64,000 nt of DNA from an uncultured virus (IMG/VR IMGVR_UViG_2706794521_000001) (Duplodnaviria > Heunggongvirae > Uroviricota > Caudoviricetes), in the IMG/VR virus record IMGVR_UViG_2706794521_000001, positions 1-64,000 of that record. One strand, 5' to 3'. Position numbers and translations under genes: made by a program. This document shows positions 28,700-45,468 of this stretch, piece by piece. The notes under the pieces were generated by a model, which did not search any database, had not been told where the DNA came from, and saw only the letters and a program-made list of their open reading frames with translations. Position 1 is the first letter of the stretch. Each line of letters opens with the position of its first letter.

Positions 28700-30394
28700 C
28701 TATTCCTCGTCCAGTTTTGCTTCGAGATCGTCGTCGAGTTCCGCGGCCAGCGACGAATCCGGGTCGTCTTCAGCCGCGGCGCCCGCCTTTTTGGGTTGAT
28801 CAGGCGGCGCCCCAGCGTTTTTCGCCTCTTCCAGCGCAGCTTCCTCACCACCCTTGACCTGCAGGATATCGGTCGCCGCCCACGGCTTGGGCAGGTTGAG
28901 CTCGTCGTGCAGCGCGTTTTCGGCCGCGCGCTGGCGAGCGTCGTCGTCCCAATCGCGCCCGTATTCTTCAGCGATCTCCGACAATGTCGTTGCCTGCATG
29001 TCCTTGCGGACCTGGTAAGCGCGAGCGGTCTTGAAATCGTCGGCCTGCGGCCTGGCCGGCCCGGTCCATGTCGCGCGTGCCGCGAAGGCCATCATCTCTT
29101 TGAAGCGGTGATACCCGCCCGGGAATTCGATGCGCCCCGTGGCGATCTCCTCGTCCAGCCACCACAGAAACACCATGTTGCAGAACGGCACGATTAGGTT
29201 GTTGCGTCGGCGCATGACGGTCAGCCATTCGACGGCGCCAGCCATGCGGACTGACGAATAGGTGGCCCCGCGATAGTCGCCGGTCGCACTCTCGTAGGTG
29301 ACGCCGCCACCTCGAGCGATCTCGCGCAGCAGCCAGCCGAGAAAATGGTCGAGCTGCTGGCCAGGCTGCTTCGCCTCGGTGAAATTGAGTTCGTCGCCCG
29401 GGAACAGGTGGGCGATGCGGCCGTGCTGCGACAGATCAATGCTGGCGCCGTCGTACCATTCGCCTTTGATGTTTGAGAATGCCGAGGCGGACATGTCGAC
29501 CGCGCCGCCGTTCACCCGATCTTGCTGGGTAAACAGCCCGTCGTAGGCGGCGACGCCAGAGATGTTGGTCTTCAACGTCGCGGCGAAGATGGTCTGAATC
29601 ATCGCCGAGGTTAGGTTGGCGTCGAAATACTGGTCGACCTGGCGGACAACCTTCAATACCGACGCGAACGGACCGATGCCGCGGGTGCTGGCGATCGTCG
29701 GGTCTTTGATGTGCAACACATTCGGCCTGCCATCTGCGTCGAGCGCGCGAATGTCACGTTCGCGCCAGCCGAGCAGGTTCTCACGCTCGCGAAGCCGGTA
29801 ACCGATCGGTAGGCCCCACGCGTCGACCTTGACGCCTTGGATCATGCCGCCGGTGTAGTCGGTCCAGTTGACCAGCCGCGTCGGCGGCGTCATCAGCACC
29901 TTGGTCAATGACGCACTGCCTTCGCGGCGTATCATCGGCATCAGCGCCAGGATCTCGCCATGCCCCATGTAGGAGGCGTAAGCCGCCTGCTGCATTTGGC
30001 TGAAGTTCATCTGGCCTTGGGCGTCACATTCACGCGGATTGTTCGCCCACGCGCGGAATCGGGTCTCGACGTTGCGAGCCCATTTCGTCGCAAATTCCGG
30101 TTTCCAGCCGAGCACATCCGCGTCGGGGCGGCTTGCCATACGCAAACCGGAGCCGACGACTCCACCAGATGAGACCTCGACGATGCCGGACATAAACCCG
30201 GAGTTCTGAATCGCTGATATAGACCGCGCCGCGGCTTTTTCCCACGATGCCTGGACGTCCTGCTGCTGTTCCCGCAACTGCGGGTTCCAGCCGACGAGGA
30301 ACGGGCTCCTTTCGCTCTGAAAATACGCCGCTTTCGGCTTCGGAACGGCCGCGCTCGACCGAAAAGGCCGGCTGAGACGTTCGAGCATGCCCAT
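28700..30394 (-). CDS. portal protein, lambda family
   Basis: GVVGSGL, STRGIGPFASVL, HLFPGDEL, TGDYRGATYSSVRM. Confidence 0.93.
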   Translation of the reverse strand: MGMLERLSRPFRSSAAVPKPKAAYFQSERSPFLVGWNPQLREQQQDVQASWEKAAARSISAIQNSGFMSGIVEVSSGGVVGSGLRMASRPDADVLGWKPEFATKWARNVETRFRAWANNPRECDAQGQMNFSQMQQAAYASYMGHGEILALMPMIRREGSASLTKVLMTPPTRLVNWTDYTGGMIQGVKVDAWGLPIGYRLRERENLLGWRERDIRALDADGRPNVLHIKDPTIASTRGIGPFASVLKVVRQVDQYFDANLTSAMIQTIFAATLKTNISGVAAYDGLFTQQDRVNGGAVDMSASAFSNIKGEWYDGASIDLSQHGRIAHLFPGDELNFTEAKQPGQQLDHFLGWLLREIARGGGVTYESATGDYRGATYSSVRMAGAVEWLTVMRRRNNLIVPFCNMVFLWWLDEEIATGRIEFPGGYHRFKEMMAFAARATWTGPARPQADDFKTARAYQVRKDMQATTLSEIAEEYGRDWDDDARQRAAENALHDELNLPKPWAATDILQVKGGEEAALEEAKNAGAPPDQPKKAGAAAEDDPDSSLAAELDDDLEAKLDEE

Positions 30395-30401
30395 GATGAT
30401 C

Positions 30402-32249
30402 CTAGCCGTGGAGCCGCTTCACGCTGTCTTTCAGGCTCGGCCGAGTGTTCGGCTTGCCCTTCAGATCTTCGTAGCGACTGTCAAAATCGAAGCGGCAAAG
30501 TTGTTTTGCCGCGATCCCATAAACGGTGCAGTCCAGCGCCTCGGCTTTTCTCTTCCCAATGCGGGCGAAAATGATCTCGGGGCGCCCGTCTTTCCCGTAT
30601 TTCAGTTCGCGCCGCTCGGCGGTGAGCTGGATGAAGTACTGTTCTGTCAGCACGTTGCCGAAGCGAAACGACTGCTGCTCGTGGGGTTCCAGTGGCAAAG
30701 AGACCAGGATGTCGGTCTTCACCTGGTCGACGCCGACGATGTAGAGCGTCGCCGAGCGGTTGCGCCGCCGCGTCGTGCTCGCCTTCAGGACCGGCCGAGG
30801 ACCGTCGTCGCCCTTGATGGCGACAATCTTCCTGCCCTGTGTCCGTTCGCAGTAGTCGTAGACCCGCTGGGTCATATTGCCGTCGCCCGAGTCGACGCAG
30901 GCTGCCTCGACGCCGATCTCACCGCCGAGCGGATGCTTCCAGACGGTCATGAGGAGCGAATCGAGCTCGTCCCATGTGGTTTGAAGCAGCGCCGAGCCGC
31001 GGATGACGAGATGGCCGAGCACATAACGATGGTTGCGCGACCAGCCGACCAGCACCACCTCGAGGCGGTCGACCTGGACGTCAACGCCGGCCGTGATGTA
31101 GGCGACATCTTCGGGAATATCCTGACGCCATGCCGATTGTGCATGATCCCACGCGATGCCGAAGTTTTCGCAGCGCGCGAGGAGCTGGTTCTCGTTGACA
31201 TAGTTGATCGCGGTCGACCAAACCTTGCCGAGCACGGTGTTGTAGAACACCTGCATGTCGGAAGCGCCGGCCTTCAGCGCTTTCTCATACTCCTCGACCA
31301 GCTTCGGCCATGACGCATTGGCGAACTGCGAGATCAGCGCGTTCAGCCGGAAGCCAGCGTGGCCCTTGACGTGCGGCGCGGTCGCGCGCCACTCGCCGTT
31401 CTCGACCATCTGCGGCTTGAACCGCTCTTCGATCTCGGTGCCGCAATTCGGGCACATGCAGACGACCGTTTCGGGTTGCCCCGACTTCCAGTCCAGATGT
31501 TCCCACATCAATTCGAACGGCACGTCGCAGTGCACGCACGGGATCTCGAAAACCCGCTTGTCCGATTCCTCATAGCGCTTGATGATGATCGACGTGGCTT
31601 CGTCGGTCGGCGTCGATCCGACAACGATCTTACGATCGGCAAACGACGTCGTCCGTTTCTCGCCCAGCTTGATCGGGTCACCTTCCTTGGTGACCTTCAT
31701 GCCGTCGACCTCGTCGCACAGCAGCACCTTGGCCGTGTGCCGGCGAAGGTTACGTGGCGCCATGGCCGACAGGATCTTCAGCGATCCGCCGCCGAGCAGC
31801 ATTCGTTGCGTCAGCGTGTTGCGACCGTCAAACCGGCCGATTCGCATGACGTCGCGCAGCGCCGGCGTCTCGCGAAAGGCCGGATCGAGCTCGTCGACTG
31901 CAATGCCCCGAGCGTCGTCATCCGTCGGCATCAGCAGGATGATCGGGCAGGGGTCGTTGACCGCAAATGCCCCGATCGTCGCGATAAGGCTGACAGTGTA
32001 GCCAGTTCGGGCGCTCTTGATGACCGAAACCCGCTCGATCAGCGGGTCGCCCATCGCGTCCAGGATCCCGCGCTGGAATTTCCATGGCCGAAAGCGGCCA
32101 GGCGCAGCCGATGACGTCGCCGAAAGGCGGAAGTGCTTGGCCGCCCACTGCGAAAATGACAGGATCTCAGGGGGTCGAAGCGCCTTGCCGAGAGCGCCAA
32201 AAAGGCGCTTCACGGCATCACTTTTCACCCAAGATCTCCCTCGAGTCAC
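30402..32249 (-). CDS. terminase large subunit (lambda GpA family)
   Basis: KSARTGYT Walker A, LLCDEVD, GSTPT, TAGVDVQ, EALDCTVY. Confidence 0.95.
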   Translation of the reverse strand: MTRGRSWVKSDAVKRLFGALGKALRPPEILSFSQWAAKHFRLSATSSAAPGRFRPWKFQRGILDAMGDPLIERVSVIKSARTGYTVSLIATIGAFAVNDPCPIILLMPTDDDARGIAVDELDPAFRETPALRDVMRIGRFDGRNTLTQRMLLGGGSLKILSAMAPRNLRRHTAKVLLCDEVDGMKVTKEGDPIKLGEKRTTSFADRKIVVGSTPTDEATSIIIKRYEESDKRVFEIPCVHCDVPFELMWEHLDWKSGQPETVVCMCPNCGTEIEERFKPQMVENGEWRATAPHVKGHAGFRLNALISQFANASWPKLVEEYEKALKAGASDMQVFYNTVLGKVWSTAINYVNENQLLARCENFGIAWDHAQSAWRQDIPEDVAYITAGVDVQVDRLEVVLVGWSRNHRYVLGHLVIRGSALLQTTWDELDSLLMTVWKHPLGGEIGVEAACVDSGDGNMTQRVYDYCERTQGRKIVAIKGDDGPRPVLKASTTRRRNRSATLYIVGVDQVKTDILVSLPLEPHEQQSFRFGNVLTEQYFIQLTAERRELKYGKDGRPEIIFARIGKRKAEALDCTVYGIAAKQLCRFDFDSRYEDLKGKPNTRPSLKDSVKRLHG

Positions 32250-32763
32250 CAGAAATTACCGAAGCCTCGACCTCTTCGGCCATGTCCAGCAGAATATCGC
32301 GGCACATGTGTTTCAAGACGTCGGCGTCATGCGGCGTAAGGTGCGGAATGCTCGATCGTGCCTTGCCAGGGATCGACAGCACCGCCGCCTTTATGGTCTG
32401 GGCAAACTGTGACCAGCTTGCCTCGATCTCCGACAGTGTCATGGACTCGCCTGTCATTTTGGCGAGTTCGCGTTCCTTGATCTGCCGGATGACCTTTTCA
32501 GTCTGGGCGCGCTCGTCAGTCAGCGATTGGCCAGTTGCCGATGCTCTGCCGGCAGCCTGCTCGCGCAGCGCGGCTATGTATCCGTTGACCGAAGCGACCG
32601 TCTCGTACCGACCGCGGCCGACGGCCCGCCGGAAAACACCCTTCTGGTCCCAATCCGTGATCGAGCGGATCGACACGCCGACCAGGTTTGCGAGATCGGC
32701 TTTCGAGCAGGTAGGCGGGATAGCCGTCGCAGTTGACAGCTTCTTCCCGACTGGCCTGCCCAC
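32218..32763 (-). CDS. terminase small subunit (Nu1-like)
   Basis: N-terminal HTH KADLANLVGVSIRSITDW; GRGRYETVASV; coiled coil. Confidence 0.85.
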   Translation of the reverse strand: MGRPVGKKLSTATAIPPTCSKADLANLVGVSIRSITDWDQKGVFRRAVGRGRYETVASVNGYIAALREQAAGRASATGQSLTDERAQTEKVIRQIKERELAKMTGESMTLSEIEASWSQFAQTIKAAVLSIPGKARSSIPHLTPHDADVLKHMCRDILLDMAEEVEASVISGDSREILGEK

Positions 32764-32767
32764 GATG

Positions 32768-33425
32768 CTACAGCCCGAGCGTCCTGATTACCTGCCGCAC
32801 GACCCGCTTTTCGAGATCCAGCGCGGCGAACCGTTCAGACGCCGGCACGTTCGGCCTCGTCGGCTTCGCCAACTCGTTGGCGAGCACCGCCATGGAGAGG
32901 ACTTTCAACGGGAACCTGTCTTTCGTTGTGCGGACGACCACCTGGCCATTGGCGATGAAAGAGTGCGGAAATTGCCGCCTCACATTCCATCCGGTTGCCT
33001 CGGCGCCTCGCATGGAACTGACCGAGCCGCCGAACTTCCCGTCCGACATCGGATTGAGATCTCGAACCCAGACGGGGTTGCCGTATTCGGCGAGAGGGAT
33101 GGCAACGTCGGCCGTGACGACCTCTGCCGTCATGCTCGGTCCTGGCGCCGCCTTGACCACTCGAGTCTTCGATCTCACGCGCCCGGCCGGAACACCGGTG
33201 GTCGCTGCGATACGGACGACAGATTGCCGGGCCTGCTCGCCCGCATGCTNCGCGCCCGGCCGGAACACCGGTGGTCGCTGCGATACGGACGACAGATTGC
33301 CGGGCCTGCTCGCCCGCATGCTCATTCAGACCGCGAGCGGCGGCCTGCTGCATCTCCGGGCCTTCGAGTTTCTGCAGGAAGCGGATGAGCTCCGAATCCT
33401 GGTGGAAGGTGGCGGTGATCTTCAT
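32768..33425 (-). CDS. gpZ-like tail completion protein, apparently split by an assembly artefact
   Basis: AAARGLNE...FPHSFI; removing one 72-bp copy plus the N leaves 585 nt in frame. Confidence 0.7.
33178..33322. repeat. exact 72-bp duplication flanking an N (scaffold join)
   Basis: 33178-33249 is identical to 33251-33322; N at 33250. Confidence 0.9.
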
Positions 33426-33455
33426 CGCGCCGCCACCCCCAACTAAATTGCACCA

Positions 33456-34028
33456 CTAGAACGTTCGGCCTTTGGCTTGTTCTGCCTTGTACCCAGCTTC
33501 CACTTGGAGACGCAGTTCATTCAGCTCCGCGACGCAGCCGGGTTTAAGGTCCTTTGCCACTAGGTTGGCCCCAAACACACGGTTCCATTCATTAATCGCC
33601 TCAACAACCGCCGTCAGGTCGACACCCATCATTAGTTCATCGCTTCCCGTTTCCAGGTGGGCCAGATAAGCGCGATGTCGATCTACCGCTTCTGACAGTC
33701 GGGCCACGGTTGTGTCATAGACACCTTCCAGATGGGCCCGCGCAAGCTGGGATTCGATCTCGCTAAGGCGATCTGAGGTTGAGGCAATATCTTGCATCAA
33801 GGCCTCCACCGCCTTTTCAGCTGGTGTTTGCCATCTGTCCAGGGCATAGGCCCCCAATATCGATGAAACGAGGTAAAGGGCGCCACCTATTGCGATCAAC
33901 AGCGGAGGTGGCAAATCTAGACCGAGCAACCAGAGCACAATCGCCGGCAGAAGGAATATTCCCTGCCATACCGAACGCCACGCGGCGTGCTTGCCGTCTG
34001 CTAAGAAGCCCGTGAATTCCGTGTTCAT
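33456..34028 (-). CDS. two-TM plus coiled-coil membrane protein (moron-like)
   Basis: Two hydrophobic helices then a heptad-rich region; lower GC; start uncertain. Confidence 0.55.
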   Translation of the reverse strand: MNTEFTGFLADGKHAAWRSVWQGIFLLPAIVLWLLGLDLPPPLLIAIGGALYLVSSILGAYALDRWQTPAEKAVEALMQDIASTSDRLSEIESQLARAHLEGVYDTTVARLSEAVDRHRAYLAHLETGSDELMMGVDLTAVVEAINEWNRVFGANLVAKDLKPGCVAELNELRLQVEAGYKAEQAKGRTF

Positions 34029-34281
34029 GCCCGTCAGCATAGTTACGTTGCGTTGGCGCACAAGGGACTCGTATCAAGGGTCGACGCAATATCTCAGGGA
34101 CAGAGATAGTCCTGTAACATAGAGCTCTATGAGGGGTCGGCTTGACGCCGCCCCGATCAGCCATCTGAGCAGGATTTAGCGTCTACGCGAGGGGGGAGGT
34201 CGCGAGAAACTGCCCCTCTTGCGAGCTTCGGTCAACCCCCCGACTTTCGAACAGGCTTTCCAGATCGTTACCGTTTTCCGG

Positions 34282-34336
34282 CTGTCCCGAGTTTGTCCCG
34301 GAATTGTCCGGGATTTGTCCGAGTTCCGTCCGGGAA
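34282..34336. repeat. five 11-bp-phased GTCC-core repeats
   Basis: GTCC at 34284, 34295, 34306, 34317, 34328. Confidence 0.85.
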
Positions 34337-34970
34337 GTATTTTCAGCCAGTCAGCGGCCAGAGTGCGATTCCGCTTGACACCATTTCGACCCAGAGCGGC
34401 GGAAGGCCCCTATAGGGCATAAGGTCGGTAAATAACCGCGGGGCTGCGCTCCGCTGGCGCTCGCCCCCTGATACGGTCCCTAAGTCGCTTTTGCTGGTAG
34501 CAGCTCGAGCCAGGCGCAGGCCACCATGAGCGCCACGCATGCAGGACGAGGGGCGAGGCGGGGCAGGGTGGGCGCGTGTTGGTGGGGCGCTGTGACCATG
34601 CAACATCATGCTCGAGCAGAGCGACCACGCATGGGCAGGGGCGGGCTGGGTGGCGCGGAGCTGCTGCAGCTCGGCGGGCATGGTGTGCGACGCTATCGGG
34701 TATGGGAGTGCTTTTCGCTGAAAAGTGCTCACGCGGTCAAGTTGTGGGCAGAGTCGCAGGGTTGTGCAGTAGAGCAGGCCAGCATGCGGCAGCATGCGCA
34801 GGCCAGGTACAAGCAACGCGAACCGTTTCGACTATGGCAAGGCGGGTATAGCCGGGCGGCGTCACTCCAAGGCCAAGTAGGGAACGAAGAAAAAGCGCAT
34901 GTTTTCATGCTCATAGCGCATTATTTGCTTTACATTCCGCCCCGGTTTTGAGAGAGTGTTCTTGCAAAAC

Positions 34971-34986
34971 GGCTCGATTGTGAGCC
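34971..34986 (+). promoter_or_regulatory. GATTGT-loop hairpin, copy 1
   Basis: GGCTC-GATTGT-GAGCC, then GAAAGG and ATG at 35005. Confidence 0.7.
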
Positions 34987-35004
34987 CATCGAAAGGCAGA
35001 CAGC

Positions 35005-35220
35005 ATGAACACTCCCACCGCAACCTTTCATGACATCTGGGCAGGACCAGTTCCCGCGCATGTCGTCGCCTTCAAGACCACGCGCAAGGGCGAACGCGTC
35101 GTCCGCTATCGTTGGCAGCGCGTCGACGGCAACCATTGCTGCAGCGTGGTCTATCTCACGCCGGCGGCTGCGGCCGCTGCCAAGCGTCGCGACGCGCGCT
35201 TTTCCAACGTCGTGGCGTGA
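35005..35220 (+). CDS. hypothetical protein
   Basis: RBS present; first gene of the accessory cluster. Confidence 0.65.
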   Translation: MNTPTATFHDIWAGPVPAHVVAFKTTRKGERVVRYRWQRVDGNHCCSVVYLTPAAAAAAKRRDARFSNVVA

Positions 35221-35221
35221 C

Positions 35222-35383
35222 ATGAACCCCACTCACGACTTCGGCTTGTTCATCCTCCGCGCTGGGGTGTGGACTGCTCATGCTACCGACGAGACGCTTT
35301 CCTCGTTCCTGAAGCAGGAGCGCGCCTATCTCGCTGACTCGCTCGGCCTGACCGTTGCCATCTTCCGCAAGATCGAGGCGTGA
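35222..35383 (+). CDS. hypothetical protein (53 aa)
   Basis: MNPTHDFGLFILRAGVW...; tightly coupled to neighbours. Confidence 0.55.
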   Translation: MNPTHDFGLFILRAGVWTAHATDETLSSFLKQERAYLADSLGLTVAIFRKIEA

Positions 35384-35384
35384 C

Positions 35385-35663
35385 ATGCGCGCGCTGCTCC
35401 TCTCCGCTTTCGTCGCCGGCGCTTTGGTGTCCGGTCTTCAGGCCGGGCGCATCTATGACGCGGCTTTCGTCTATTCCGAGTCCTGCGACCGCGCGCCGCT
35501 GCCGAACGCCTTCGGGCGCTATCAGGCCAAGGGCCTGGTCTGTCACCTTGCCGACTACATCGTTTACGGCGCCTCGCTGCAACAGCCGGTCACGGCCTGC
35601 ACGCTCGCGCGGGCCGTGCCGACGGACGCCAACATTGAGGCCTGCACGGGCCAGCCCATCTAG
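35385..35663 (+). CDS. secreted Cys-containing hypothetical protein
   Basis: Signal-like N-terminus MRALLLSAFVAGALVSG; 4 Cys. Confidence 0.55.
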   Translation: MRALLLSAFVAGALVSGLQAGRIYDAAFVYSESCDRAPLPNAFGRYQAKGLVCHLADYIVYGASLQQPVTACTLARAVPTDANIEACTGQPI

Positions 35664-35718
35664 CGCCTTTTTCAGCGCCCGGCACGCTGGGCGCTGCGAT
35701 GGTCGCTAGACCGCAACC

Positions 35719-35732
35719 GCCCGATTGTGGGC
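35719..35732 (+). promoter_or_regulatory. GATTGT-loop hairpin, copy 2
   Basis: GCCC-GATTGT-GGGC, then GAAAGGA and ATG at 35751. Confidence 0.7.
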
Positions 35733-35750
35733 AACATGAAAGGAACGAAC

Positions 35751-35855
35751 ATGAAGACCGACAAGCGCCAGTTTTCCGACCGTATCGAAGGCCGCGTGCG
35801 CCGCGATGTCCGCCGCAACGCCCGCGCTGCAAAGCGCGCATGGCTGGAAATGTGA
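35751..35855 (+). CDS. 34-aa arginine-rich peptide (absent from the ORF track)
   Basis: MKTDKRQFSDRIEGRVRRDVRRNARAAKRAWLEM with AAAGGA RBS. Confidence 0.65.
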   Translation: MKTDKRQFSDRIEGRVRRDVRRNARAAKRAWLEM

Positions 35856-35857
35856 CC

Positions 35858-36064
35858 ATGAGGCACGACCGTTACGACGATCTCACGCCTGAAGAGCTCG
35901 CAGCGGTGCAAGCCTATGCCGCGAAGCACGGCCGGATGTGGAAGAGCATCCTGCGAGGGGCATGGTTGGGGCAGCCGCCGTATGACGACACCGGGACGTT
36001 GCGCAACCTCCGCAACACCCATGGTCCGTCATGGCTGGACGGCTTCAAGCTGCCGAAGGCGTGA
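35858..36064 (+). CDS. hypothetical protein (68 aa)
   Basis: LTPEELAAVQAYAAKHGRMWKSILRGAW...LRNLRNTHGPSWL, a pattern I associate with mobile-element proteins. Confidence 0.7.
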   Translation: MRHDRYDDLTPEELAAVQAYAAKHGRMWKSILRGAWLGQPPYDDTGTLRNLRNTHGPSWLDGFKLPKA

Positions 36065-36155
36065 CACATAGCGCGCGGCCTTCGGGCCGCGCCTCACCAT
36101 CGCCTTTCCGGCCGGCCAGGCATGGCCGCCCCGATGGTCGGATTGTGGCCAACTT

Positions 36156-36169
36156 GCCCGATTGTGGGC
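36156..36169 (+). promoter_or_regulatory. GATTGT-loop hairpin, copy 3 (variant copy at 36135-36151)
   Basis: GCCC-GATTGT-GGGC, then AAAGGAG and ATG at 36191. Confidence 0.7.
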
Positions 36170-36190
36170 TGATCAAAAGGAGCTTTTTCA

Positions 36191-37054
36191 ATGAACATTT
36201 ACACCCCGACCGCGCGTTTCGACACCGGCCGCGCGTTGACCGAAGACGAGTTGCGCATGCGTGCGCCGTCGGTTTTCGCGCTGGCTGCTCATGAAAGCCG
36301 GTCCGAACGTTTCCAGCCCATCCCCACGATTGAGATTGTGCGGGCGCTGGCAAATGAGGGTTTTCACGTCGTCGGCGCTAAGCAGTCCGGCACGCGAGAC
36401 GAAAGCCGGAAAGACTTCACAAAGCACCTGCTGCGCCTCCGCCGGCTGGACAACGAAGCGGCCTATTCGGTCGGCGATACCGTCTGCGAAATTCTGTTGA
36501 AGAACGCGAACGACGGGACGAGCGCATATGACCTCATGGCCGGCCTTTTCCGCATTCGTTGCCTGAATTCGATGGTCTCGCAGACGGCAACGCTGGACTC
36601 GCTCAAGGTGCGCCATTCCGGCGACGTTGCCGGCAAGGTGATCGAAGGCACGTATACCGTTCTCGACGCGGCACAAAAGGCGCTTGCCGCGCCGCAGGAC
36701 TGGTCAACGGTCAAGCTGAACAATGACGAGTCGGCCATTCTTGCCGAAGCGGCGCACCTGCTCCGCTTCGCCGATGCAGACGGCAATGTTGAAACCCCGA
36801 TCAAGCCCGCTCAGCTCCTCATGCCGCGCCGCCACGACGACCGCGCCGCAGACCTGTGGACGCAATTCAATGTCGTGCAGGAAAACGTCATTCGGGGCGG
36901 GCTGCGCGGTGTCGGTCGTGACGCCAACAACCGCCGGCGCCGGGTCACAACGCGCGAAGTCAACGGGATCGATCAAGACGTGAAGTTGAACAAAGCCCTG
37001 TGGCTGCTCGGCGCGAAGATGGCCGAGCTGAAGGGAATTCGCGCCGCCGCGTGA
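36191..37054 (+). CDS. DUF932/DUF945-family protein
   Basis: APSVFA..AHESRSERF.PIPT, FTKHLLRLR, EILLKNANDGTSAY, GLFRIRCLNSMV, FNVVQENVIRGG. Confidence 0.9.
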   Translation: MNIYTPTARFDTGRALTEDELRMRAPSVFALAAHESRSERFQPIPTIEIVRALANEGFHVVGAKQSGTRDESRKDFTKHLLRLRRLDNEAAYSVGDTVCEILLKNANDGTSAYDLMAGLFRIRCLNSMVSQTATLDSLKVRHSGDVAGKVIEGTYTVLDAAQKALAAPQDWSTVKLNNDESAILAEAAHLLRFADADGNVETPIKPAQLLMPRRHDDRAADLWTQFNVVQENVIRGGLRGVGRDANNRRRRVTTREVNGIDQDVKLNKALWLLGAKMAELKGIRAAA

Positions 37055-37096
37055 TCAGTGCGGGGCGGTTCGCCCGCCCCGCATCCTCGCTCAACA

Positions 37097-37110
37097 GCGC
37101 AATTGTGCGC
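37097..37110 (+). promoter_or_regulatory. GATTGT-loop hairpin, copy 4 (AATTGT)
   Basis: GCGC-AATTGT-GCGC, then AAAGGAG and GTG at 37130. Confidence 0.65.
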
Positions 37111-37129
37111 GCCCAAAAAGGAGACAATC

Positions 37130-37888
37130 GTGGAAATCAGTCAGCACATTCTCGCCGTACTCAGCCAGGCCGAAACGGTCGGCAACAACCTCTATCTGCG
37201 CGGGCAGCTCGACCGCAAGACCTATCAGGACGTCAACAAGGTTCTGGAAGCTAATGGCGGCAAGTGGAACCGCAGCGCGAAGGCGCATGTCTTCAGCGAA
37301 CCGGCTGCCGAGGCGATTGAGCAAGCCTTGATGACTGGCGAATTCCGCCGGGTCAAACAGGATTTTGGTCAATTCGACACGCCGCCGGATGTGGTGGCGC
37401 GCGTCATCGAACTCGCTGCAGTCGAGCCCGGAATGTGGGTTTATGAGCCCAATGCAGGCATCGGCAATCTAGTCGCCGGCGCGGCGGCCAAGGGGGCAAC
37501 TGTCTGGGGCAATGAGATCGACCCAAAGCGGCACGCAGCCTGCGTCACGCGCCATTTCGCTTCGTTCGGCGCAGGCGGGCTGACAATGCTGGACTTTCTC
37601 GCCATCGATCCGGGCCCGGAACCGGGCTTTGACCGCGTAGTCATGAACCCGCCCTTCGCAAAGCAGGCGGATATTGATCACGTCGCGCACGCCCTAAAAT
37701 TCGTGAAGCCAGGCGGCCGGCTGGTCGCAATCATGTCGGCGTCGGTCACCTTCCGCAGTAATCGGAAAACAACCGATTTCCGCGACATGGTCGAGGCCAA
37801 AGGTGCGCATTGGGAGGCTTTGCCGGAGGGCGCTTTCGCTTCGTCAGGCACCAACGTCAACGCCGTGGTTTTGGCGGTCGACGCATGA
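37130..37888 (+). CDS. orphan N6-type (NPPF) DNA methyltransferase-like protein
   Basis: GQLDRKTY..VNKVLE..GGKW N-domain; QFDTP, YEPNAGIG, FDRVVMNPPF. Confidence 0.85.
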   Translation: MEISQHILAVLSQAETVGNNLYLRGQLDRKTYQDVNKVLEANGGKWNRSAKAHVFSEPAAEAIEQALMTGEFRRVKQDFGQFDTPPDVVARVIELAAVEPGMWVYEPNAGIGNLVAGAAAKGATVWGNEIDPKRHAACVTRHFASFGAGGLTMLDFLAIDPGPEPGFDRVVMNPPFAKQADIDHVAHALKFVKPGGRLVAIMSASVTFRSNRKTTDFRDMVEAKGAHWEALPEGAFASSGTNVNAVVLAVDA

Positions 37889-37992
37889 AAGACCTCGTCC
37901 AAGACCTCGCCGCATTCCTCGCCGTGGCCGCGTTCCTCGCGTTCTCCGCCATTTACCTAATCGCAGCCGCCCCCGCGTCGCTGCCTGTCTGA
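37885..37992 (+). CDS. 35-aa single-TM peptide
   Basis: MKDLVQDLAAFLAVAAFLAFSAIYLIAAAPASLPV; ATGA overlap. Confidence 0.5.
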   Translation: MKDLVQDLAAFLAVAAFLAFSAIYLIAAAPASLPV

Positions 37993-38004
37993 AAGGATTC
38001 CACC

Positions 38005-38514
38005 ATGCCCAAATTTACGCTTGCCGACATCCAGCGGGCCGGCTCCCGCATCAGCGAATTTCATGGGCCGTTCAAGGCCGAAGGAACCGACATCCGGAAT
38101 GCTTTTGGGGTGATCGTCGGCAAGGCGATCGACGAAGTTCACGCCGATCTGTTCGCGGCGTCTGTCTCGCTGCCCGATCATGTCAACGACACGGTCGACG
38201 CTCTCGTTCAAGCCGAGTCGTTCATCAGCGGCTTTGAGGACGACGAAACACAGGAAGGCGTTTCCGACATCCTCGCTGGGCTTCGAGCGGCAATCCCGCG
38301 CGAGCAGGCGCGGCCTGACCTGCTGGCCGTGCTAAAACTCGCTGTGACCGACTGGCCACAATTCGACTCAGCGCCGGCACTAAGGCAGCTGGGATGTCAG
38401 GAAGAGCATGACGTCGAGGTCAACGGCGGTGATCTGGTCGAATGGTTTGGCAATTGGCGGCGCGCATTTGTACTGCCCGCGATCGCCAAGGCGGAGGGCC
38501 AGGCCAATGGATGA
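38005..38514 (+). CDS. hypothetical protein
   Basis: AAAGGA RBS; ends AIAKAEG, typical of small phage proteins. Confidence 0.7.
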   Translation: MPKFTLADIQRAGSRISEFHGPFKAEGTDIRNAFGVIVGKAIDEVHADLFAASVSLPDHVNDTVDALVQAESFISGFEDDETQEGVSDILAGLRAAIPREQARPDLLAVLKLAVTDWPQFDSAPALRQLGCQEEHDVEVNGGDLVEWFGNWRRAFVLPAIAKAEGQANG

Positions 38515-38917
38515 CGCAAAGCGCGCGCGGCTCTTCAACTGCTGCACCGACTACGCCGCGCCGGATTGGAAGCAATTCGAGCATCTGGAATTGGCGGGCT
38601 GCGTCGACGATGGCGAAGAGCCCGGCACGACGATCGGCAACCAGCCGGCCAGCGTCGCCCAATTCTTCACCGTCTACGGGCGCTTTCCCGAGCCGGACGG
38701 AACTTGCGAAGCGATCACTGACATCAAAGGCCCGCGCGACGCGTTGGCGATCGCCGGAGAACTCGCTTTGATTTCAGGCCTTCGCGTCATCGTCTGCGCA
38801 ACGTTGGGTGAGGAGCAATCCCCCGGGCAGAAGATCCGCTTCCCTGAAGACGCGCCCGGCGTCTTTCGCGTGCACCACGGAGACGGGCCATTGCCCACCG
38901 GCGCGGAGCGCATCTAG
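38507..38917 (+). CDS. hypothetical protein
   Basis: GGAGG RBS; AQFFTVYGR...CEAITD. Confidence 0.65.
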   Translation: MDDAKRARLFNCCTDYAAPDWKQFEHLELAGCVDDGEEPGTTIGNQPASVAQFFTVYGRFPEPDGTCEAITDIKGPRDALAIAGELALISGLRVIVCATLGEEQSPGQKIRFPEDAPGVFRVHHGDGPLPTGAERI

Positions 38918-38928
38918 CAACCAGCAAC

Positions 38929-38944
38929 GGCCCGATCGTGGGCC
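38929..38944 (+). promoter_or_regulatory. GATTGT-loop hairpin, copy 5 (GATCGT)
   Basis: GGCCC-GATCGT-GGGCC, then GAAAGGAG and ATG at 38963. Confidence 0.7.
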
Positions 38945-38962
38945 AATTCGAAAGGAGAGAAC

Positions 38963-39457
38963 ATGCCCGCCATGAGCAATACCCCGAAAATGAAATACGA
39001 AAGCAAATGGTATGTTGCCGACCGCGCTGCGCACGCTCGCACGATGGCAAAGCCCATGCGCTCGACAGCCAAACCCGGCCCGGAGGCCGATTCAAAGGCG
39101 CTGGAATATGCGCTATGGCTGCTAAAGCGCGACGAGGTCGACGTCGACGTGCTGGCGGATGCCGCGCGCACCGCGCACAATCTGCAATTCCCGCCGACGA
39201 AGCACCGCGAGCGCGGGAGATCGTGGGAAACACCACACCCTGGCGCCATACCGGCCGAAATGCATTGGAGCACCCGCGTTGGGTGGGACTTTTGTGCTGC
39301 CGGTCGTCGCCCGCGTTTCGTTCACTTCGAATTCTATTTGCCCCAAACCGATGGATGGCGCCGCATCGCCGCTCATCTCTACACCGCGTTTTACACGGTA
39401 GAGCTGCCTCATTGGGATTTCCTGTCCGAGGCGACGGAATGCGATGGCGAGGCGTAA
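38963..39457 (+). CDS. hypothetical protein
   Basis: Strong RBS, 164 aa. Confidence 0.65.
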   Translation: MPAMSNTPKMKYESKWYVADRAAHARTMAKPMRSTAKPGPEADSKALEYALWLLKRDEVDVDVLADAARTAHNLQFPPTKHRERGRSWETPHPGAIPAEMHWSTRVGWDFCAAGRRPRFVHFEFYLPQTDGWRRIAAHLYTAFYTVELPHWDFLSEATECDGEA

Positions 39458-39459
39458 GC

Positions 39460-39615
39460 ATGCACCGCGTCACCATCTACGCGCTCACCATGCCGCCGTC
39501 GCCGATGCTCTACCAAGATTTTGGGAAGCGCGGCGATGCTTCGGCATGGCGCGCATGGGCAAAGCGGGAATTTCCTTGCCACGTTCGAACAACCAAGCTC
39601 GGAAAGGTCGGCTGA
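39460..39615 (+). CDS. hypothetical protein (51 aa)
   Basis: Fits between coupled neighbours. Confidence 0.45.
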   Translation: MHRVTIYALTMPPSPMLYQDFGKRGDASAWRAWAKREFPCHVRTTKLGKVG

Positions 39616-39617
39616 CC

Positions 39618-39992
39618 ATGAACCAGATTATGTCTATGCTCCTCGGCGCGACGATGCCGGGGAAGAACATGCCGCGATTCGAATACAAGAGAATGACCGG
39701 GGAGCAGCTTCGGACCGAGCTGCTGGACATGGCAATGCCGGTGTTCGCCTTCGCCAGGATCTTCGGCGTGAGACCACAGACGGTCAAGAAATGGCTGCGG
39801 GACGAGAACGATATTCCGCCATGGGTGCACGTCGCGCTCGGGCTACTGCGACTCGAGGGTGCGCTGAGCGAAGCGCGCCAGCTCGCCGCAGAGCACATCA
39901 TCCGCGACAACCAGCGACCAGGTGCCGGCGAATTCCCGTTCCTTGAGCGGGCAGACGAGATCACGGAGGGCAATGGCGATGACGACGATTGA
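39618..39992 (+). CDS. HTH DNA-binding protein
   Basis: MTGEQLR...FARIFGVRPQTVKKWLRDENDIPPWV. Confidence 0.75.
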   Translation: MNQIMSMLLGATMPGKNMPRFEYKRMTGEQLRTELLDMAMPVFAFARIFGVRPQTVKKWLRDENDIPPWVHVALGLLRLEGALSEARQLAAEHIIRDNQRPGAGEFPFLERADEITEGNGDDDD

Positions 39993-40245
39993 CGAATTGT
40001 TCATCGAGCAGGAACGCGAGAGATACCTGGCTGCCGTGTTGCGGGATGACGTCAAGCAGGCCGACGCTCGATTCGCTCGCTTTGACGGCGGCTTTGAAAT
40101 TCGCTTCACAGCAGACATCCCGGGCGGTTACGACAACACCCATGTTTTCCAGACACCTAAAGAACACTCCGACAAGTACATCCGTCTGGTGACGAACGTG
40201 AACATCCGTTCTGTCAGGTCCGCGATCCGGAGCATGCGGCCATGA
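39973..40245 (+). CDS. hypothetical protein
   Basis: GGAGG RBS; ATGA overlap with the ATPase gene. Confidence 0.55.
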   Translation: MAMTTIDELFIEQERERYLAAVLRDDVKQADARFARFDGGFEIRFTADIPGGYDNTHVFQTPKEHSDKYIRLVTNVNIRSVRSAIRSMRP

Positions 40246-41639
40246 ACATCGAGATCGGCATGACCTCGACTGGCGCTACCGTTGGTCTGCCGCTCCGCCT
40301 TGCCAATCGGCACGGGCTCGTCACGGGCGCCACTGGCACCGGCAAGACTGTCACCCTGCAGCGCCTGGCCGAGCAATTCAGCGCCGCCGGAGTTCCTGTC
40401 TTCGCGGCCGATATCAAGGGCGATCTGTCCGGTGTTGCCGCCGGCGGGCGCTTCCCTGTTGCGCTGTGGGACATCTTCGGCCGCCATGGGCTGCCGGTGC
40501 GGACGAGCGTGCAGGATATGGGCGCTGGCCTGCTGGCGCGCATGCTCGGGCTCAACCAGGCACAGGAAGGCGCCATGGATATCGTGTTCCGCAAGGCGGA
40601 GGACGAACAGACCTTCATGCTAACGCTGGACGATTTGCGCTGGTCGCTCAACGACATGATCGAGGAGCGGGAGGACGTCTGCCGGAAATACGGCAATGTC
40701 ACCGCTGCTTCGATCGCAGCCATCCAACGCAATTTGCTCGCGCTTGAAGCACAGGGCGGCGATCGCCTGTTCGGCGAGCCGCCGTTCGATATCCTCGACC
40801 TGATGGCTGTCGACGCAGAGGGCAGGGGCACAATCAACCTGCTGCATGCCGACCAATTGCTCGAGGCGCCGAAGCTTTACGCGACCTTCCTGCTATGGCT
40901 ACTTTCCGAGCTCTTCCGCAAATTGCCCGAGGCCGGCGACCTGCCCAAGCCCAAGCTCGTGTTCTTCTTCGACGAGGCGCACCTGCTGTTCGCCGACGCG
41001 CCGAAGCACCTGCTGCAGAAGATCGAGCGGCTTGTCCGCCTGGTCAGATCCAAGGGCGTCGGCGTGTTCTTCGTCACTCAATCGCCAACCGACGTGCCGG
41101 CAGCTGTCCTGGAACAGCTCGGCACGAGGATCCTGCACGCGATGCGCGCCCACACGGCGGAGTCGCTGAGGAAGATCAAGGCGGCGGCCGATACAATTCG
41201 CCCGCGCAAGGGCTTCAAGACGCGCGAGGAATTGCCGACGTTGAAGATCGGCGAGGCGCTGATCTCGGTGATCGGCGAGGACAACGTTCCGAGCGAGGTC
41301 GAGAAGGTGAAGGTGATCATGCCGGCCGGGCAGGTCGGATCGATTTCAGATGAAGAGCGCCAGGTCGTGCTCGAGTCGACACCCTTGCGGAAGAAGTACC
41401 ATGCAGGGCTGGACGAGAACGCCGCAGGGCGGGCGTTCAGCCGCCGGATGATGCAGGCGAGGGGAATTGATCCCGGTCCGGAAGGCACCGCGGCACCGGA
41501 GGCGAACCTCTACCTGAAGCACGTCCCGTCGATCGACATCAGCGAGGAGCCTGGCAAGGGTGCTAAACGTCGGCTGTTTGAGATCGCCGCATGGGGTGCG
41601 GTAGCGGCGATCGGGTTGAAGATGGCTGGTGTGCTATAA
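40242..41639 (+). CDS. YjgR/DUF853 HerA-FtsK-family ATPase with C-terminal TM
   Basis: ANRHGLVTGATGTGKTVTLQ, ADIKGDLSG, KPKLVFFFDEAHLLF, VRLVRSKGVGVFFVTQ. Confidence 0.9.
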   Translation: MNIEIGMTSTGATVGLPLRLANRHGLVTGATGTGKTVTLQRLAEQFSAAGVPVFAADIKGDLSGVAAGGRFPVALWDIFGRHGLPVRTSVQDMGAGLLARMLGLNQAQEGAMDIVFRKAEDEQTFMLTLDDLRWSLNDMIEEREDVCRKYGNVTAASIAAIQRNLLALEAQGGDRLFGEPPFDILDLMAVDAEGRGTINLLHADQLLEAPKLYATFLLWLLSELFRKLPEAGDLPKPKLVFFFDEAHLLFADAPKHLLQKIERLVRLVRSKGVGVFFVTQSPTDVPAAVLEQLGTRILHAMRAHTAESLRKIKAAADTIRPRKGFKTREELPTLKIGEALISVIGEDNVPSEVEKVKVIMPAGQVGSISDEERQVVLESTPLRKKYHAGLDENAAGRAFSRRMMQARGIDPGPEGTAAPEANLYLKHVPSIDISEEPGKGAKRRLFEIAAWGAVAAIGLKMAGVL

Positions 41640-41667
41640 GCTGCTAATTCAGACGAAGGGGGACAAA

Positions 41668-42282
41668 ATGCTGAACAATCCTAATGATCCATGGGACTGG
41701 CTGCCGTTTTTCATAATGGTGGTGCTGGTATCGATTGGAGGTTTCTTCTCGTACCGCACTGGCGGGCGAGAGGTTAGAAGGCGGAAGGCGCGTCACGAAA
41801 GAATGGCCGCCCGATTGGATGTCCTTTTTGACATCTACAAGATGGAGGCTCGACACCGCGACGAGATCATGAGGTACATGAGATACGGCGATCAGTTTGA
41901 GATTCAGGTTAGTAAAGCCAGCTATTCTATGATGACCATCATGGCAGCGGTTTTGGGTGTTCTCAGTCTCGCCCTAACTCTGTTCTTTTGGTTTCGCCGC
42001 TGGCTCCATGTCTCGAGCTTATTTGTGAGCACGGCTTTTGCGCAAAGTGCGGTGACACCACCGCCGGAGGCAGCAAAGCCCGACCTGGGGTGGATGATCC
42101 CTTATGTCGCACTCATGGTGATCGCCATCATCGGCATCGCGTTTCTGGGCTCGATAGGCGTTTTGTGGGTCACCAAAGATACTCCAGAAAACCAAGCGAA
42201 GCTAAAGTCGGCTTCGGATATGGTGAAAATGTTCGGCGGTTTTTTCACCGGTATTGCCACGACGCTGCTTGCACCACACTAG
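41668..42282 (+). CDS. multi-TM membrane protein
   Basis: About four hydrophobic segments; lower GC. Confidence 0.65.
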   Translation: MLNNPNDPWDWLPFFIMVVLVSIGGFFSYRTGGREVRRRKARHERMAARLDVLFDIYKMEARHRDEIMRYMRYGDQFEIQVSKASYSMMTIMAAVLGVLSLALTLFFWFRRWLHVSSLFVSTAFAQSAVTPPPEAAKPDLGWMIPYVALMVIAIIGIAFLGSIGVLWVTKDTPENQAKLKSASDMVKMFGGFFTGIATTLLAPH

Positions 42283-42286
42283 CGGG

Positions 42287-42769
42287 CTACCACGCCTTAA
42301 TGCCAGCTTGATTGAGCCGCGACGCGATCGCTTTCGCCGCAACGTCCCGACGACGCCGGAACGTCGAATAGGCCCAGCCGCGGCGTTCGCACTCGACTTC
42401 GGTGTGGCGGCCGCGGATTTCCCAGAAGCACCAGGTCACGAGCGCCCGGCGTGCAGCCGGCGCGTCCTCGACGTACTTGCCCCAATTCGGCAGCTGCTGG
42501 CCTTCCGGCCCCTTGCTGCCGATCAGCACCTTTTCCATGATGGTGATCTCGCGGGCCGTGCGCTGGACCCGCACGCGTTCGATCTGCCGCTCGGTGCCCT
42601 GGGCGATCTGCCCGACCTCGTCCTCGAAGGTCACGCGGTATTCCGGCCAATTGTTCTTGAACCAATCCGGGCCGACTTGGCCGGTGGTGTCGAACAGCAC
42701 CTCAAACGCGTGGACCATCGCGTCTTTAACGAGTGTGGGATCCCAGCCGCCATCAGTCGAACTCACCAT
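42287..42769 (-). CDS. putative late-gene regulator (DUF6362-like, C-terminal HTH)
   Basis: WPEYR...CERRGWAYSTFRRRRD.A..IA.RLN; Q-like position at the end of the early operon. Confidence 0.65.
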   Translation of the reverse strand: MVSSTDGGWDPTLVKDAMVHAFEVLFDTTGQVGPDWFKNNWPEYRVTFEDEVGQIAQGTERQIERVRVQRTAREITIMEKVLIGSKGPEGQQLPNWGKYVEDAPAARRALVTWCFWEIRGRHTEVECERRGWAYSTFRRRRDVAAKAIASRLNQAGIKAW

Positions 42770-43154
42770 CTGTGATTGCATCGTACATGTCGTCCCGGAT
42801 TGCGCAGACGTTGATTCGGCGAAGATATTCCTCGCCCGTTAATCCACGCTTTTTGGCCTGGCGCGCGAGCTTGGCGCGCTCGTGGAAGGTGAGATTGATC
42901 GAGATGCGGCGATGCTTCGGCCCGCCGACTTCGGTCAGCGGCAGACCCCAATTCTTCCATTGCCGGCGGACGGTTGCCCTGCTTGTCCCGTCGGCCATGC
43001 GCTTCTCGATATCGGCCGACGAGTAGCCAAGGCCGGTCAGGAACCCGATGAAGGCGCCTTTGGCGATCGTCCAGCGAATGACGACCGGATGCCCGAACCG
43101 TTCGGTGAAATGGCGCTTCTTCGGCGCCGGTTTCTGCAGCTTGCGGCGGGCCAT
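42753..43154 (-). CDS. DNA-binding hypothetical protein
   Basis: HTH-like GYSSADIEKRM...RATVRRQW plus RHH-like C-terminus. Confidence 0.55.
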   Translation of the reverse strand: MARRKLQKPAPKKRHFTERFGHPVVIRWTIAKGAFIGFLTGLGYSSADIEKRMADGTSRATVRRQWKNWGLPLTEVGGPKHRRISINLTFHERAKLARQAKKRGLTGEEYLRRINVCAIRDDMYDAITDGEFD

Positions 43155-45394: not shown

Positions 45395-45468
45395 CAGAGG
45401 GCCTCTCGAAATGGGGAGAAACTCGCCATCAGATGGCAGTTCGTGATATCGAGCGCCGGTGGCGGGGT

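Follow-up and report, generated by a model that had tools for sequence, protein, structure and literature searches.

Short covarying hairpins before independently translated genes in an accessory operon of a Mesorhizobium prophage

The prophage locus and its hairpin cassettes

The DNA analyzed here is the 64,000-nucleotide stretch at positions 1 to 64,000 of IMG/VR virus record IMGVR_UViG_2706794521_000001. It is referred to below as the window and represents a lambda-like Mesorhizobium prophage. The element under study is a small hairpin found five times in front of genes of a plus-strand operon (positions 35005–42775), which lies between the packaging and replication modules. Minus-strand genes encode terminase gpA, a lambda-type portal, an S49 protease, a head decoration protein, major capsid protein E and baseplate proteins, and further prophage genes encode an AAA_25 replication-type protein, GcrA-like and GapR-like proteins, YqaJ, RecT and a helicase. 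The operon itself encodes a DUF932 protein (E = 4e-35), an N6 DNA methyltransferase and a HerA-like ATPase; its remaining products show no family match in Pfam or PHROGs.

The five hairpins are all on the plus strand. They have stems of 4–5 bp and the loop sequences GATTGT, AATTGT or GATCGT (Table 1). A sequence-only reading of the locus had placed five hairpins here, each with AAC starting 8–9 nt before the loop, AAAGG after the stem and a start codon 23–26 nt past the last loop base, and this is exact in the sequence. From copy 1 to copy 5 the distance from the start of AAC to the loop is 8, 8, 9, 8 and 8 nt, and that from the last loop base to the start codon is 24, 23, 26, 24 and 24 nt; AAAGG begins 5–7 nt past the stem in all five. 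The separate GC-rich hairpins described before copies 2–4 and the variant hairpin described just before copy 3 were found as well.

Position of the hairpins relative to the genes follows a simple rule. The block at 35005–39457 contains abutting or overlapping stop-to-start junctions at 35220/35222, 35383/35385, 35855/35858, 37888/37885 and 38514/38507, and one 12-nt junction within a translation unit (37992/38005). None of these junctions has a hairpin. The five gaps of at least 45 nt up to position 38965 have one copy each. A comparable distribution is seen in another element, L017, where the motif precedes 11 of 14 called genes with an upstream gap of at least 27 nt and none of the five whose gap is at most 10 nt. 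All five window copies are in the accessory operon and none is among the structural genes. This rule links the hairpin either to the start of translation or to the borders between segments of the message.

Table 1. Features of the hairpin-bearing block in the window. Bits are scores with the covariance model built from the five copies; SD, Shine-Dalgarno sequence; ORF, open reading frame; HTH, helix-turn-helix.
Feature	Positions	Strand	Details
Hairpin-bearing operon block	35005–39457	+	11 ORFs, 5 translation units
Cassette 1 (operon head)	34968–35007	+	AAC 34968–34970; AAAGG 34992–34996; ATG 35005, 71-aa gene
Hairpin 1, GGCTC-GATTGT-GAGCC	34971–34986	+	stem 34971–34975/34982–34986; loop GATTGT 34976–34981; 49 bits
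Cassette 2	35715–35753	+	AAC 35715–35717; AAAGGA 35739–35744; ATG 35751, 34-aa arginine-rich peptide gene
Hairpin 2, GCCC-GATTGT-GGGC	35719–35732	+	stem 35719–35722/35729–35732; loop GATTGT 35723–35728; 46.4 bits
Cassette 3	36151–36193	+	AAC 36151–36153; AAAGGAG 36176–36182; ATG 36191, DUF932 gene
Hairpin 3, GCCC-GATTGT-GGGC	36156–36169	+	stem 36156–36159/36166–36169; loop GATTGT 36160–36165; 40.4 bits
Cassette 4	37093–37132	+	AAC 37093–37095; AAAGGAG 37117–37123; GTG 37130, N6 DNA methyltransferase gene
Hairpin 4, GCGC-AATTGT-GCGC	37097–37110	+	stem 37097–37100/37107–37110; loop AATTGT 37101–37106; 45.6 bits
Cassette 5	38926–38965	+	AAC 38926–38928; AAAGGAG 38951–38957; ATG 38963, 164-aa gene
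Hairpin 5, GGCCC-GATCGT-GGGCC	38929–38944	+	stem 38929–38933/38940–38944; loop GATCGT 38934–38939; 42.3 bits
Extra variant hairpin, TGGTC-GGATTGT-GGCCA	36135–36151	+	just 5′ of cassette 3; without its own ribosome-binding site
Small hairpin, GGTC-GCTA-GACC	35701–35712	+	5′ of cassette 2
GC-rich hairpin, CAGCGCCC / GGGCGCTG	35673–35696	+	3′ of the 92-aa gene stop; without a T run
GC-rich hairpin, TTCG loop	36072–36091	+	3′ of the 68-aa gene stop; without a T run
GC-rich hairpin, 10 bp	37059–37083	+	3′ of the DUF932 stop codon; without a T run
34-aa arginine-rich peptide (..EGRVRRDVRRNARAAKRAWLEM)	35751–35855	+	shortly upstream of DUF932
XRE-type HTH protein, candidate hairpin reader	39444–39992	+	far end of the block

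Base pairing, strand and covariation

In a test of strand, instances were chosen by loop, closing pair, Shine-Dalgarno sequence (SD), start codon and open reading frame (ORF), with no criterion on the stem. On the gene strand 32 of 34 instances have at least three contiguous pairs, vs one of five on the opposite strand.

Covariation was analyzed in 35 ungapped copies from the window and from seven loci representing five other elements, with two likely false copies included; the selection pattern itself had preset the closing pair and four of the loop positions. At pair 9–18 there are 22 CG, seven GC and five UA pairs and one unpaired copy, and at pair 8–19 there are 22 GC, 10 CG and one AU pair and two unpaired copies. 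These two variable inner pairs show 23 compensatory double changes and no one-sided change, which agrees with the earlier statement that the stems differ but stay paired. The covariation score is 0.404, compared with 0.111 ± 0.026 in shuffled alignments (0 of 500 reach 0.404) and at most 0.104 when the partners are slid, although the shuffle test overstates the independence of the data because the copies are paralogues and relatives of one another. The sequence-only reading had made its proposal depend on covariation in related phages, and this covariation is present.

Orthologous positions give the same picture. The leader stem of the DUF932 gene is GCCC/GGGC in the window vs GCGC/GCGC in the related Mesorhizobium prophage L002, and the small hairpin at 35701–35712 has the L002 counterpart GGAC-GCTA-GTCC, in which T-A is replaced by A-T as a compensatory change. 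G-U wobbles occur only in the sense orientation (L002, region of 4467; L284, 3633; L407, 6886; L411, 183); on the complementary strand they would be mismatches of A with C. The sequence-only reading had proposed an element that is common to the gene cluster and read in single-stranded form. The coding-strand orientation, the fixed distance to the ribosome-binding site, the stem compensation and the lack of an Rfam match together support this: the hairpin is very probably a structured leader element acting at the level of RNA.

Genome background and folding stability

The genome of 7,027,013 bp was scanned on both strands for stems of at least four Watson-Crick pairs around a loop [GA]AT[TC]GT. 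There are 96 such hairpins, 12 of which have a[ag]gg located 2–12 nt downstream. Five of these 12 are the window copies, on one strand and within 4 kb, and no other such cluster exists across the 7.0 Mb. A more permissive rule (closing C-G, stem of at least three pairs, loop RANNGT, SD, start codon and an ORF of at least 30 aa) gives 17 genome hits vs 7, 25 and 5 for three control loop patterns; it detects four of the five window copies, copy 3 being outside the SD-to-start spacing limit. With control loops giving 5–25 hits, the hits outside the prophage are therefore at the noise level. Dispersal like that of REP, BIME or MITE sequences was not found, as the host chromosome outside the prophage has only noise-level matches.

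The covariance model built from the five copies scores these at 40–49 bits, and the next site in the window at 14.8 bits. The hairpin is present in the centroid fold of all five leaders.

No named family had been recognised at the outset, and the searches agree. Rfam 15 has no match at E ≤ 1 in window positions 30000–46000, and on L017, L284 and L407 it gives only tRNA, a sub-threshold Hammerhead_3 and a chance viral match, none of them over the cassettes. Literature searches, which included the 12-mer GCCAATCGTGGC and DUF932 leader hairpins and were not exhaustive, did not find the motif described. A comparison with plasmids gave a match to the DUF932 coding region alone (16% of the query) and nothing on the intergenic cassettes.

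The five hairpins and the GC-rich hairpins before copies 2–4 are not among the 10 intrinsic terminator-like sites that were called, a number to be compared with a mean of 9.5 in shuffled sequence. No sigma-70-like promoter site was called in 33300–43200, where a consensus scan may miss alphaproteobacterial promoters. Three other assignments were rejected. The loop as a -10 hexamer, or GATGGTC as a -35 element, was judged by eye to have spacing and upstream sequence that are not common to the five copies. Pairing of the loop with the SD-to-start region is found only in copy 4 (ACAATC) and is therefore attributed to chance. An integron attC site is ruled out by size and by the lack of an integrase.

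Two features of the sequence upstream of the operon are recorded here. Approximately 900 nt between the divergent modules (34062–35004) are without a convincing gene and partly G-rich, and patches such as GTGCTCAC and GAAAAAG(C/T)GCAT are conserved between this region and L002 positions 3900–4440. Between the packaging genes and the operon, at 34270–34350, is a non-coding cluster of short direct repeats, TTTGTCCCGG, TTGTCCGGGA, TTTGTCCGAG and CCGTCCGGGAAG, which contains a 6-bp hairpin, TCCCGG-AATTGT-CCGGGA. The cluster may bind a protein, e.g. terminase or a repressor.

The cassette in other Rhizobiales elements

Other Rhizobiales prophages carry from two to more than 15 copies of the cassette, with different cargo genes. 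The shared core is a closing C-G pair, a loop R-A-N-N-R-U and a stem of 3–5 bp, followed by 4–9 nt, the SD, a further 5–9 nt and the start codon. L002, which has the same terminase flank as the window, contains four to five copies with GCGC stems. L017 contains at least 12 copies of GCC-AATCGT-GGC-AC, and in L017-type phages the cassette is near-identical between copies, including GGAGAYCGA located 3′ of the hairpin. The IMG/VR phage 2802428822 has at least 15 copies, 2582581315 at least six and 2855953901 two. Among bacterial genomes G425 has 11 listed copies, G701 has 10, G497 and G728 have four each and G652 has at least two.

The loop variant is specific to the lineage and uniform across the copies seen within one element. 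All listed copies of G425 have A at loop position 5 (e.g. AATCAT), and L017, L282–L284 and L293 have G at this position. The cargo is almost wholly different between cassette-bearing elements, and the core C-RANNRU-G is kept across them. The loop had been called nearly fixed. Across the family it is not: only the closing C-G and loop positions 1, 2, 5 and 6 (R, A, R and U) are retained. AAC upstream of the hairpin, also assigned to each copy, is present in all five window copies; beyond this prophage it is found only in part, in the closest relative.

The element is sporadic among the sampled genomes, as expected of prophage cargo. In a search of 151 genomes of the genus only G000 has more than two covariance-model hits; in 151 genomes of the family only G000 and G425 have more than one (four each), and in 151 genomes of the order two further genomes have two hits each.

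DUF932 homologues from 28 genomes commonly have a hairpin directly before the SD, with the type of hairpin being lineage-specific. Examples are CCGC-TTCG-GCGG in Roseibium, GCGCC-ATTGA/AGTGA-GGCGC in Stappia (two per locus) and CGGCCC-TGGCAG-GGGCCG in Bosea (three copies). DUF932 clusters of Stappia, Bosea, Novosphingobium and G398 (L004–L008, L018 and L410) have their own hairpin two to three times before SDs, e.g. GCGCC-ATTGA-GGCGC-GCC and CGGCCC-TGGCAG-GGGCCG. Placement of a hairpin ahead of the SD thus extends beyond the R-A-N-N-R-U loop type.

Some hairpins of a similar form are chromosomal. In the Mesorhizobium genome loci L066–L069, L073 and L076, GCCGC-AATGGT-GCGGC followed by an SD precedes a conserved chromosomal ORF of more than 500 aa (MTRNPE...). 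The host genome's own leader of rpmI, which encodes ribosomal protein L35, contains GCGC-ATTGGT-GCGC (L086, 1460–1500), and no Rfam family was found on this leader. A GGCATGCCGTGGCGG box is located farther upstream in many of the listed Rhizobiales rpmI leaders. A literature search on rpmI/L20 leaders in Alphaproteobacteria found nothing on such a hairpin.

Candidate RNA-binding proteins

The 3′ end of the 164-aa gene that follows cassette 5 is overlapped by an ORF for a putative XRE-type helix-turn-helix (HTH) protein. The HTH domain comprises residues 81–140 of the long ORF, and the start codon may instead be ATG 39618, which has GGAAAGG upstream. In the AlphaFold model pLDDT is 76–87 over residues 81–140, which form four short helices. 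The nearest folds by Foldseek are HigA2, HigA, Aca2, C.Kpn2I and MqsA. The homologue in L002 weakly matches phrog_4779, “transcriptional regulator”, with an E-value of 2e-4.

The same HTH family closes the block in the window, in L002 (11458–11778), in G425, in L282 and in L293, a set that includes three loop types. It is the one protein seen to recur at the far end of the block, and its C-terminal domain is conserved in the alignment. In L282, L293, G425 and G701 the HTH gene is preceded by its own variant cassette. A profile search shows the HTH protein in 14 of 400 genomes of the family. Ten new loci were identified with the HTH profile alone. Four have two to 10 canonical cassettes upstream on the HTH strand, with zero to two on the other strand, and two (L409 and L410) have variant-loop hairpins before SDs. 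The other four consist of one HTH gene without an upstream block, two weak HTH matches and one contig that is too short. Searches of viral contigs with the window protein found nothing, and those with the L293 protein found only two already-known phages.

A second, weaker candidate RNA binder is the 34-aa arginine-rich peptide encoded after cassette 2. Its kin are a 39-aa peptide at L002 positions 5008–5127 and a 63-aa protein at L017 positions 5746–5937, just before DUF932. The motif EGR.RR..RR..R..K.A is common to the three and has no family match. Among the loci examined, DUF932 sits within a block with this type of hairpin in just these three, the window, L002 and L017. The stretches examined of L197, L282–L284 and L293 lack the motif, and the 63-aa L017 protein has no relatives in viral contigs.

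Proposed function and alternatives

We propose, tentatively, that the hairpin is an RNA operator or a leader module, one for every cistron that is translated independently, with the HTH protein as its likeliest reader. The hairpin, a short A-rich spacer, a strong SD and the start codon would together form a plug-in translation-initiation cassette of about 40 nt. Such a cassette would front each cistron that needs its own ribosome recruitment, and translationally coupled genes would do without it. Retention of the closing C-G pair and of R1, A2, R5 and U6, with a stem that is free to covary, points to a hairpin that is read as a sequence-specific operator. Use as an operator for a trans-acting factor is close to an even call, and we place it slightly on the doubtful side. 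The bound factor, 5–9 nt upstream of the SD, would control access of the 30S subunit, and perhaps mRNA stability, at all cistrons jointly. Each lineage also has its own uniform loop variant, and both patterns argue for a reader that is sequence-specific and of phage rather than host origin.

Recurrence of the HTH gene at the end of the block suggests, without proving, a translational control similar to that by the HTH protein Aca2. If it acts as Aca2 and Aca1 do, the HTH protein would accumulate and then switch off cargo-gene translation. Aca2 and Aca1 are the nearest tested precedent, and on this basis coordinated translational repression by the HTH protein is proposed with moderate to low confidence. 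We infer from the conserved loop that a protein reads the hairpin; that this protein is the HTH product is, from the comparative data, doubtful, and the direction of the effect would follow the Aca analogy.

Several observations weigh against this proposal. Mean pLDDT of the whole HTH protein model is 52, all Foldseek E-values are 0.17 or higher, with the Aca2 chain 7ezy_A at rank 8, and the E-values for the HTH domain in Pfam (0.0085–0.03) and for the best PDB sequence (0.035) are weak. The link between HTH protein and cassettes is also incomplete: the HTH gene in the window has no canonical hairpin of its own, the homologue in L197 is placed divergently, G566 has the HTH protein with no cassettes upstream, and the L017 locus examined ends before the far end of its block. 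Co-occurrence of HTH gene and cassettes could reflect the relatedness of the phages and not function. Variant loops also occur, i.e. TGAAA in L017, GATCTT in L409 and AATCAC in L410, and the R-A-N-N-R-U rule is partly imposed by the search patterns. The hairpins are not unusually stable (folding-energy z-scores of -0.6 to +0.5). The case for the element therefore rests on position, repetition and covariation and not on stability.

The main rival is a structural role, in which the hairpin is a cis-acting module without a dedicated reader. It would mark and shield the 5′ end of every message segment that is processed or newly started, as a barrier to 5′-end-dependent RNase E or RNase J. Insulation of the A-rich ribosome-binding site against GC-rich structure upstream is a further possible role, and the GC-rich hairpins past the stop codons would then shield the 3′ ends of the upstream segments. 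The layout of copies 2–4 (stop codon, large GC hairpin without a T run, linker, small hairpin, SD) is in accord with this. So are the promoter-like sequences at the Stappia loci L004–L007 and the L002 operon head, where the hairpin is about 10–20 nt from the expected transcript start, and other DUF932 loci, where hairpins in the same place have very different loops, among them the very stable UUCG tetraloops of Roseibium. RNA processing is further hinted at by a candidate type III hammerhead ribozyme at L017 positions 4837–4893 on the plus strand, the 3′ end of which adjoins the 5′ arm of a cassette hairpin; its core boxes CUGAUGAG and CGAAAC are intact, and it scores 30.4 bits vs a gathering score of 48.5 (E = 8e-5 in a 301-nt search). 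However, protection does not need a conserved loop, and here the stems drift and covary around a closing pair and four loop positions that persist in elements with unrelated cargo. The stems are also just 3–5 bp and not unusually stable, and a conserved cleavage motif upstream was not seen outside the window prophage. A structural role is possible but on the improbable side, and both a translational-control site and a processing or stability site remain live options. These were two of the four mechanisms suggested by the sequence-only reading. The third, a single-stranded DNA signal, is unlikely because the prophage has terminase-packaged double-stranded DNA, and the fourth, a boxB-like protein site, fits poorly. 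In the boxB case the hairpins would be sites of processive antitermination, with the 34-aa peptide acting as an N-like protein and permitting read-through of the intergenic GC-rich hairpins. Copies 2–4 do follow such hairpins, and the window, L002 and L017 all retain the peptide gene. On the other side, the upstream GC hairpins have no T runs and no terminator score, copies 1 and 5 lack an upstream hairpin, antitermination needs one or two sites per operon and not one per ribosome-binding site, and the hexaloop is not GNRA-like. With the peptide also absent from the examined stretches of L197, L282–L284 and L293, and no N-like family found among the window proteins in Pfam or PHROGs, antitermination is scarcely probable.

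Three other explanations concern DNA or the host. The cassettes could be short-homology junctions for the exchange of accessory genes, with any role in expression being secondary, as has been proposed for the promoter-early stem-loop (PeSL) of T4-type phages. Cargo between the cassettes is nearly all different in related elements while the cassettes are alike, and the whole L017-type cassette is near-identical between copies. But homology would favour identical stems, whereas the stems within one phage differ by compensatory changes, and the fixed SD distance and the absence of cassettes before coupled genes are left unexplained. As a primary function exchange is unlikely, and it can be compatible with the operator explanation. 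Asymmetric double-stranded DNA operators, comparable to stoperators, would have a repressor, possibly the HTH protein, bind C-RATYGT-G and block transcription in the lysogen. The many sites in one orientation, the short intergenic regions, the temperate phage, the conserved asymmetric core and the HTH protein associated with the blocks all agree with such operators. This reading is nevertheless contradicted by flanks that covary as Watson-Crick partners, since the compensatory double changes without any one-sided change are a signature of base pairing; G-U pairs found only on the sense strand and a spacing that is fixed relative to the SD and not to a promoter also argue against it, and we regard it as decidedly unlikely. 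A final explanation is a host-factor site common to the host rpmI leader, e.g. for the L20 autoregulator or another ribosome-linked protein, which would place the phage genes under a translational circuit of the host. Some of the best hits of the phage covariance model are just upstream of rpmI in other Mesorhizobium (five loci, 31–38 bits). One example among L060–L064, AAC-GGCCC-GATCGT-GGGCC, is identical to copy 5 at 19 of 19 nt and stands at an equal distance from SD and start, and the rpmI leader stems covary among species (GGCCC vs GCGC, e.g. GCGC-AATCGT-GCGC). However, in the hosts of L002, L017, L005, L008 and L009 the rpmI hairpin is unlike that of the element, and the host's own loop, ATTGGT, differs from the prophage loops. 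There is no convincing C-RANNGU-G hairpin in the rRNA operon region (contig C4), and the phage-lineage-specific loops argue against a conserved host reader. A shared host factor is thus very improbable.

For the operator proposal the consequences can be stated as follows. If one factor reads the hairpins, this would explain coordinated control of highly variable accessory and anti-defence gene sets, and it would add a multi-copy case to the recent finding that HTH regulators bind mRNA. It would also provide an experimentally tractable counterpart to the start-associated sequences (SAS) of mycobacteriophages, and the C-RANNRU-G hairpin with its SD would be a signature for finding cargo blocks in alphaproteobacterial genomes. 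A general form, in which temperate phages of Rhizobiales place a standard cassette of about 40 nt before each independently translated cargo gene and one phage-encoded HTH protein from the end of the block reads all copies on the mRNA, is also doubtful. In that form a newly inserted gene would at once come under a single translational switch, a regulon inside an operon, and what Aca2 does at a single leader would be carried over to many copies. As a short modular unit, the cassette could also be a portable expression part for rhizobia.

Comparison with known systems

The PeSL of T4-type phages consists of an early promoter and a stem-loop and flanks small swappable accessory genes. The cassettes resemble it as repeated regulatory stem-loops around genes of this kind, but PeSL has an early promoter, whereas none was called in 33300–43200 and most cassettes here are internal to the operon. 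Lambda nut has one or two sites per early operon, with boxA upstream, a GNRA-like boxB pentaloop and the N protein. Similarities to boxB are the small RNA hairpin with a GC stem of 4–5 bp, the conserved loop and the arginine-rich peptide gene nearby. The differences are that there are five sites here, one per translation unit, with a 6-nt R-A-U-Y-G-U loop and only AAC shared upstream, and that boxA and an N homologue are absent. Stoperators of Cluster A mycobacteriophages are asymmetric double-stranded DNA sites in which flanking complementarity is not required; the cassette flanks, in contrast, vary together as pairing partners, and in 35 copies neither of the two inner variable pairs shows a change on one side alone.

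The SAS of Cluster K mycobacteriophages is a conserved 13-bp sequence, GGGATAGGAGCCC, which contains the SD and is located 3–7 bp before the start codon (Pope et al. 2011; PMC3203893). Roughly one in two SAS is preceded by an inverted repeat (ESAS) whose 17-bp arms are conserved and whose spacer varies, and the function and the reader of SAS were left open (PMC3203893). The two systems have several features in common: a short motif is present in many copies in one temperate-phage genome, confined to non-structural genes, almost always in one orientation and at a fixed short distance before the starts of unrelated genes. The five plus-strand copies in the window, all in the accessory operon, conform to this description. 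The SD, however, is inside the SAS, whereas here the hairpin is separate, and 13–16 nt lie between its core C-RANNRU-G and the SD core downstream. The SD of the cassette is an ordinary AAAGGAG or GGAG and not the 13-bp sequence. The arms of ESAS are conserved over 17 bp, in contrast to stems of 3–5 bp that covary freely around a loop that is kept. SAS also belong to phages of another host phylum and have no sequence similarity to the cassette.

Aca2 and Aca1 are HTH proteins that bind hairpins in their own operon mRNA's 5′ untranslated region (UTR), and binding of Aca2 blocks ribosome access (PMC13551039). Similarities to this system are a small putative HTH regulator encoded where a phage accessory (anti-defence) gene block ends, as Aca2 and Aca1 are encoded at the end of anti-CRISPR operons, and covarying, conserved leader hairpins beside the ribosome-binding site. 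The acr-aca operons have a single 5′ UTR motif, whereas here there is one hairpin per independently translated cistron and five to more than 15 per operon. The window HTH protein is related to Aca2 at the level of the fold only, and weakly, and a promoter inverted repeat was not identified here. No anti-CRISPR gene was recognised upstream of the HTH gene with Pfam and PHROGs, no dedicated anti-CRISPR library having been searched. While it has the defining sequence features of neither system, the cassette is closest in behaviour to SAS/ESAS and closest in its proposed mechanism to the Aca2 RNA motif.

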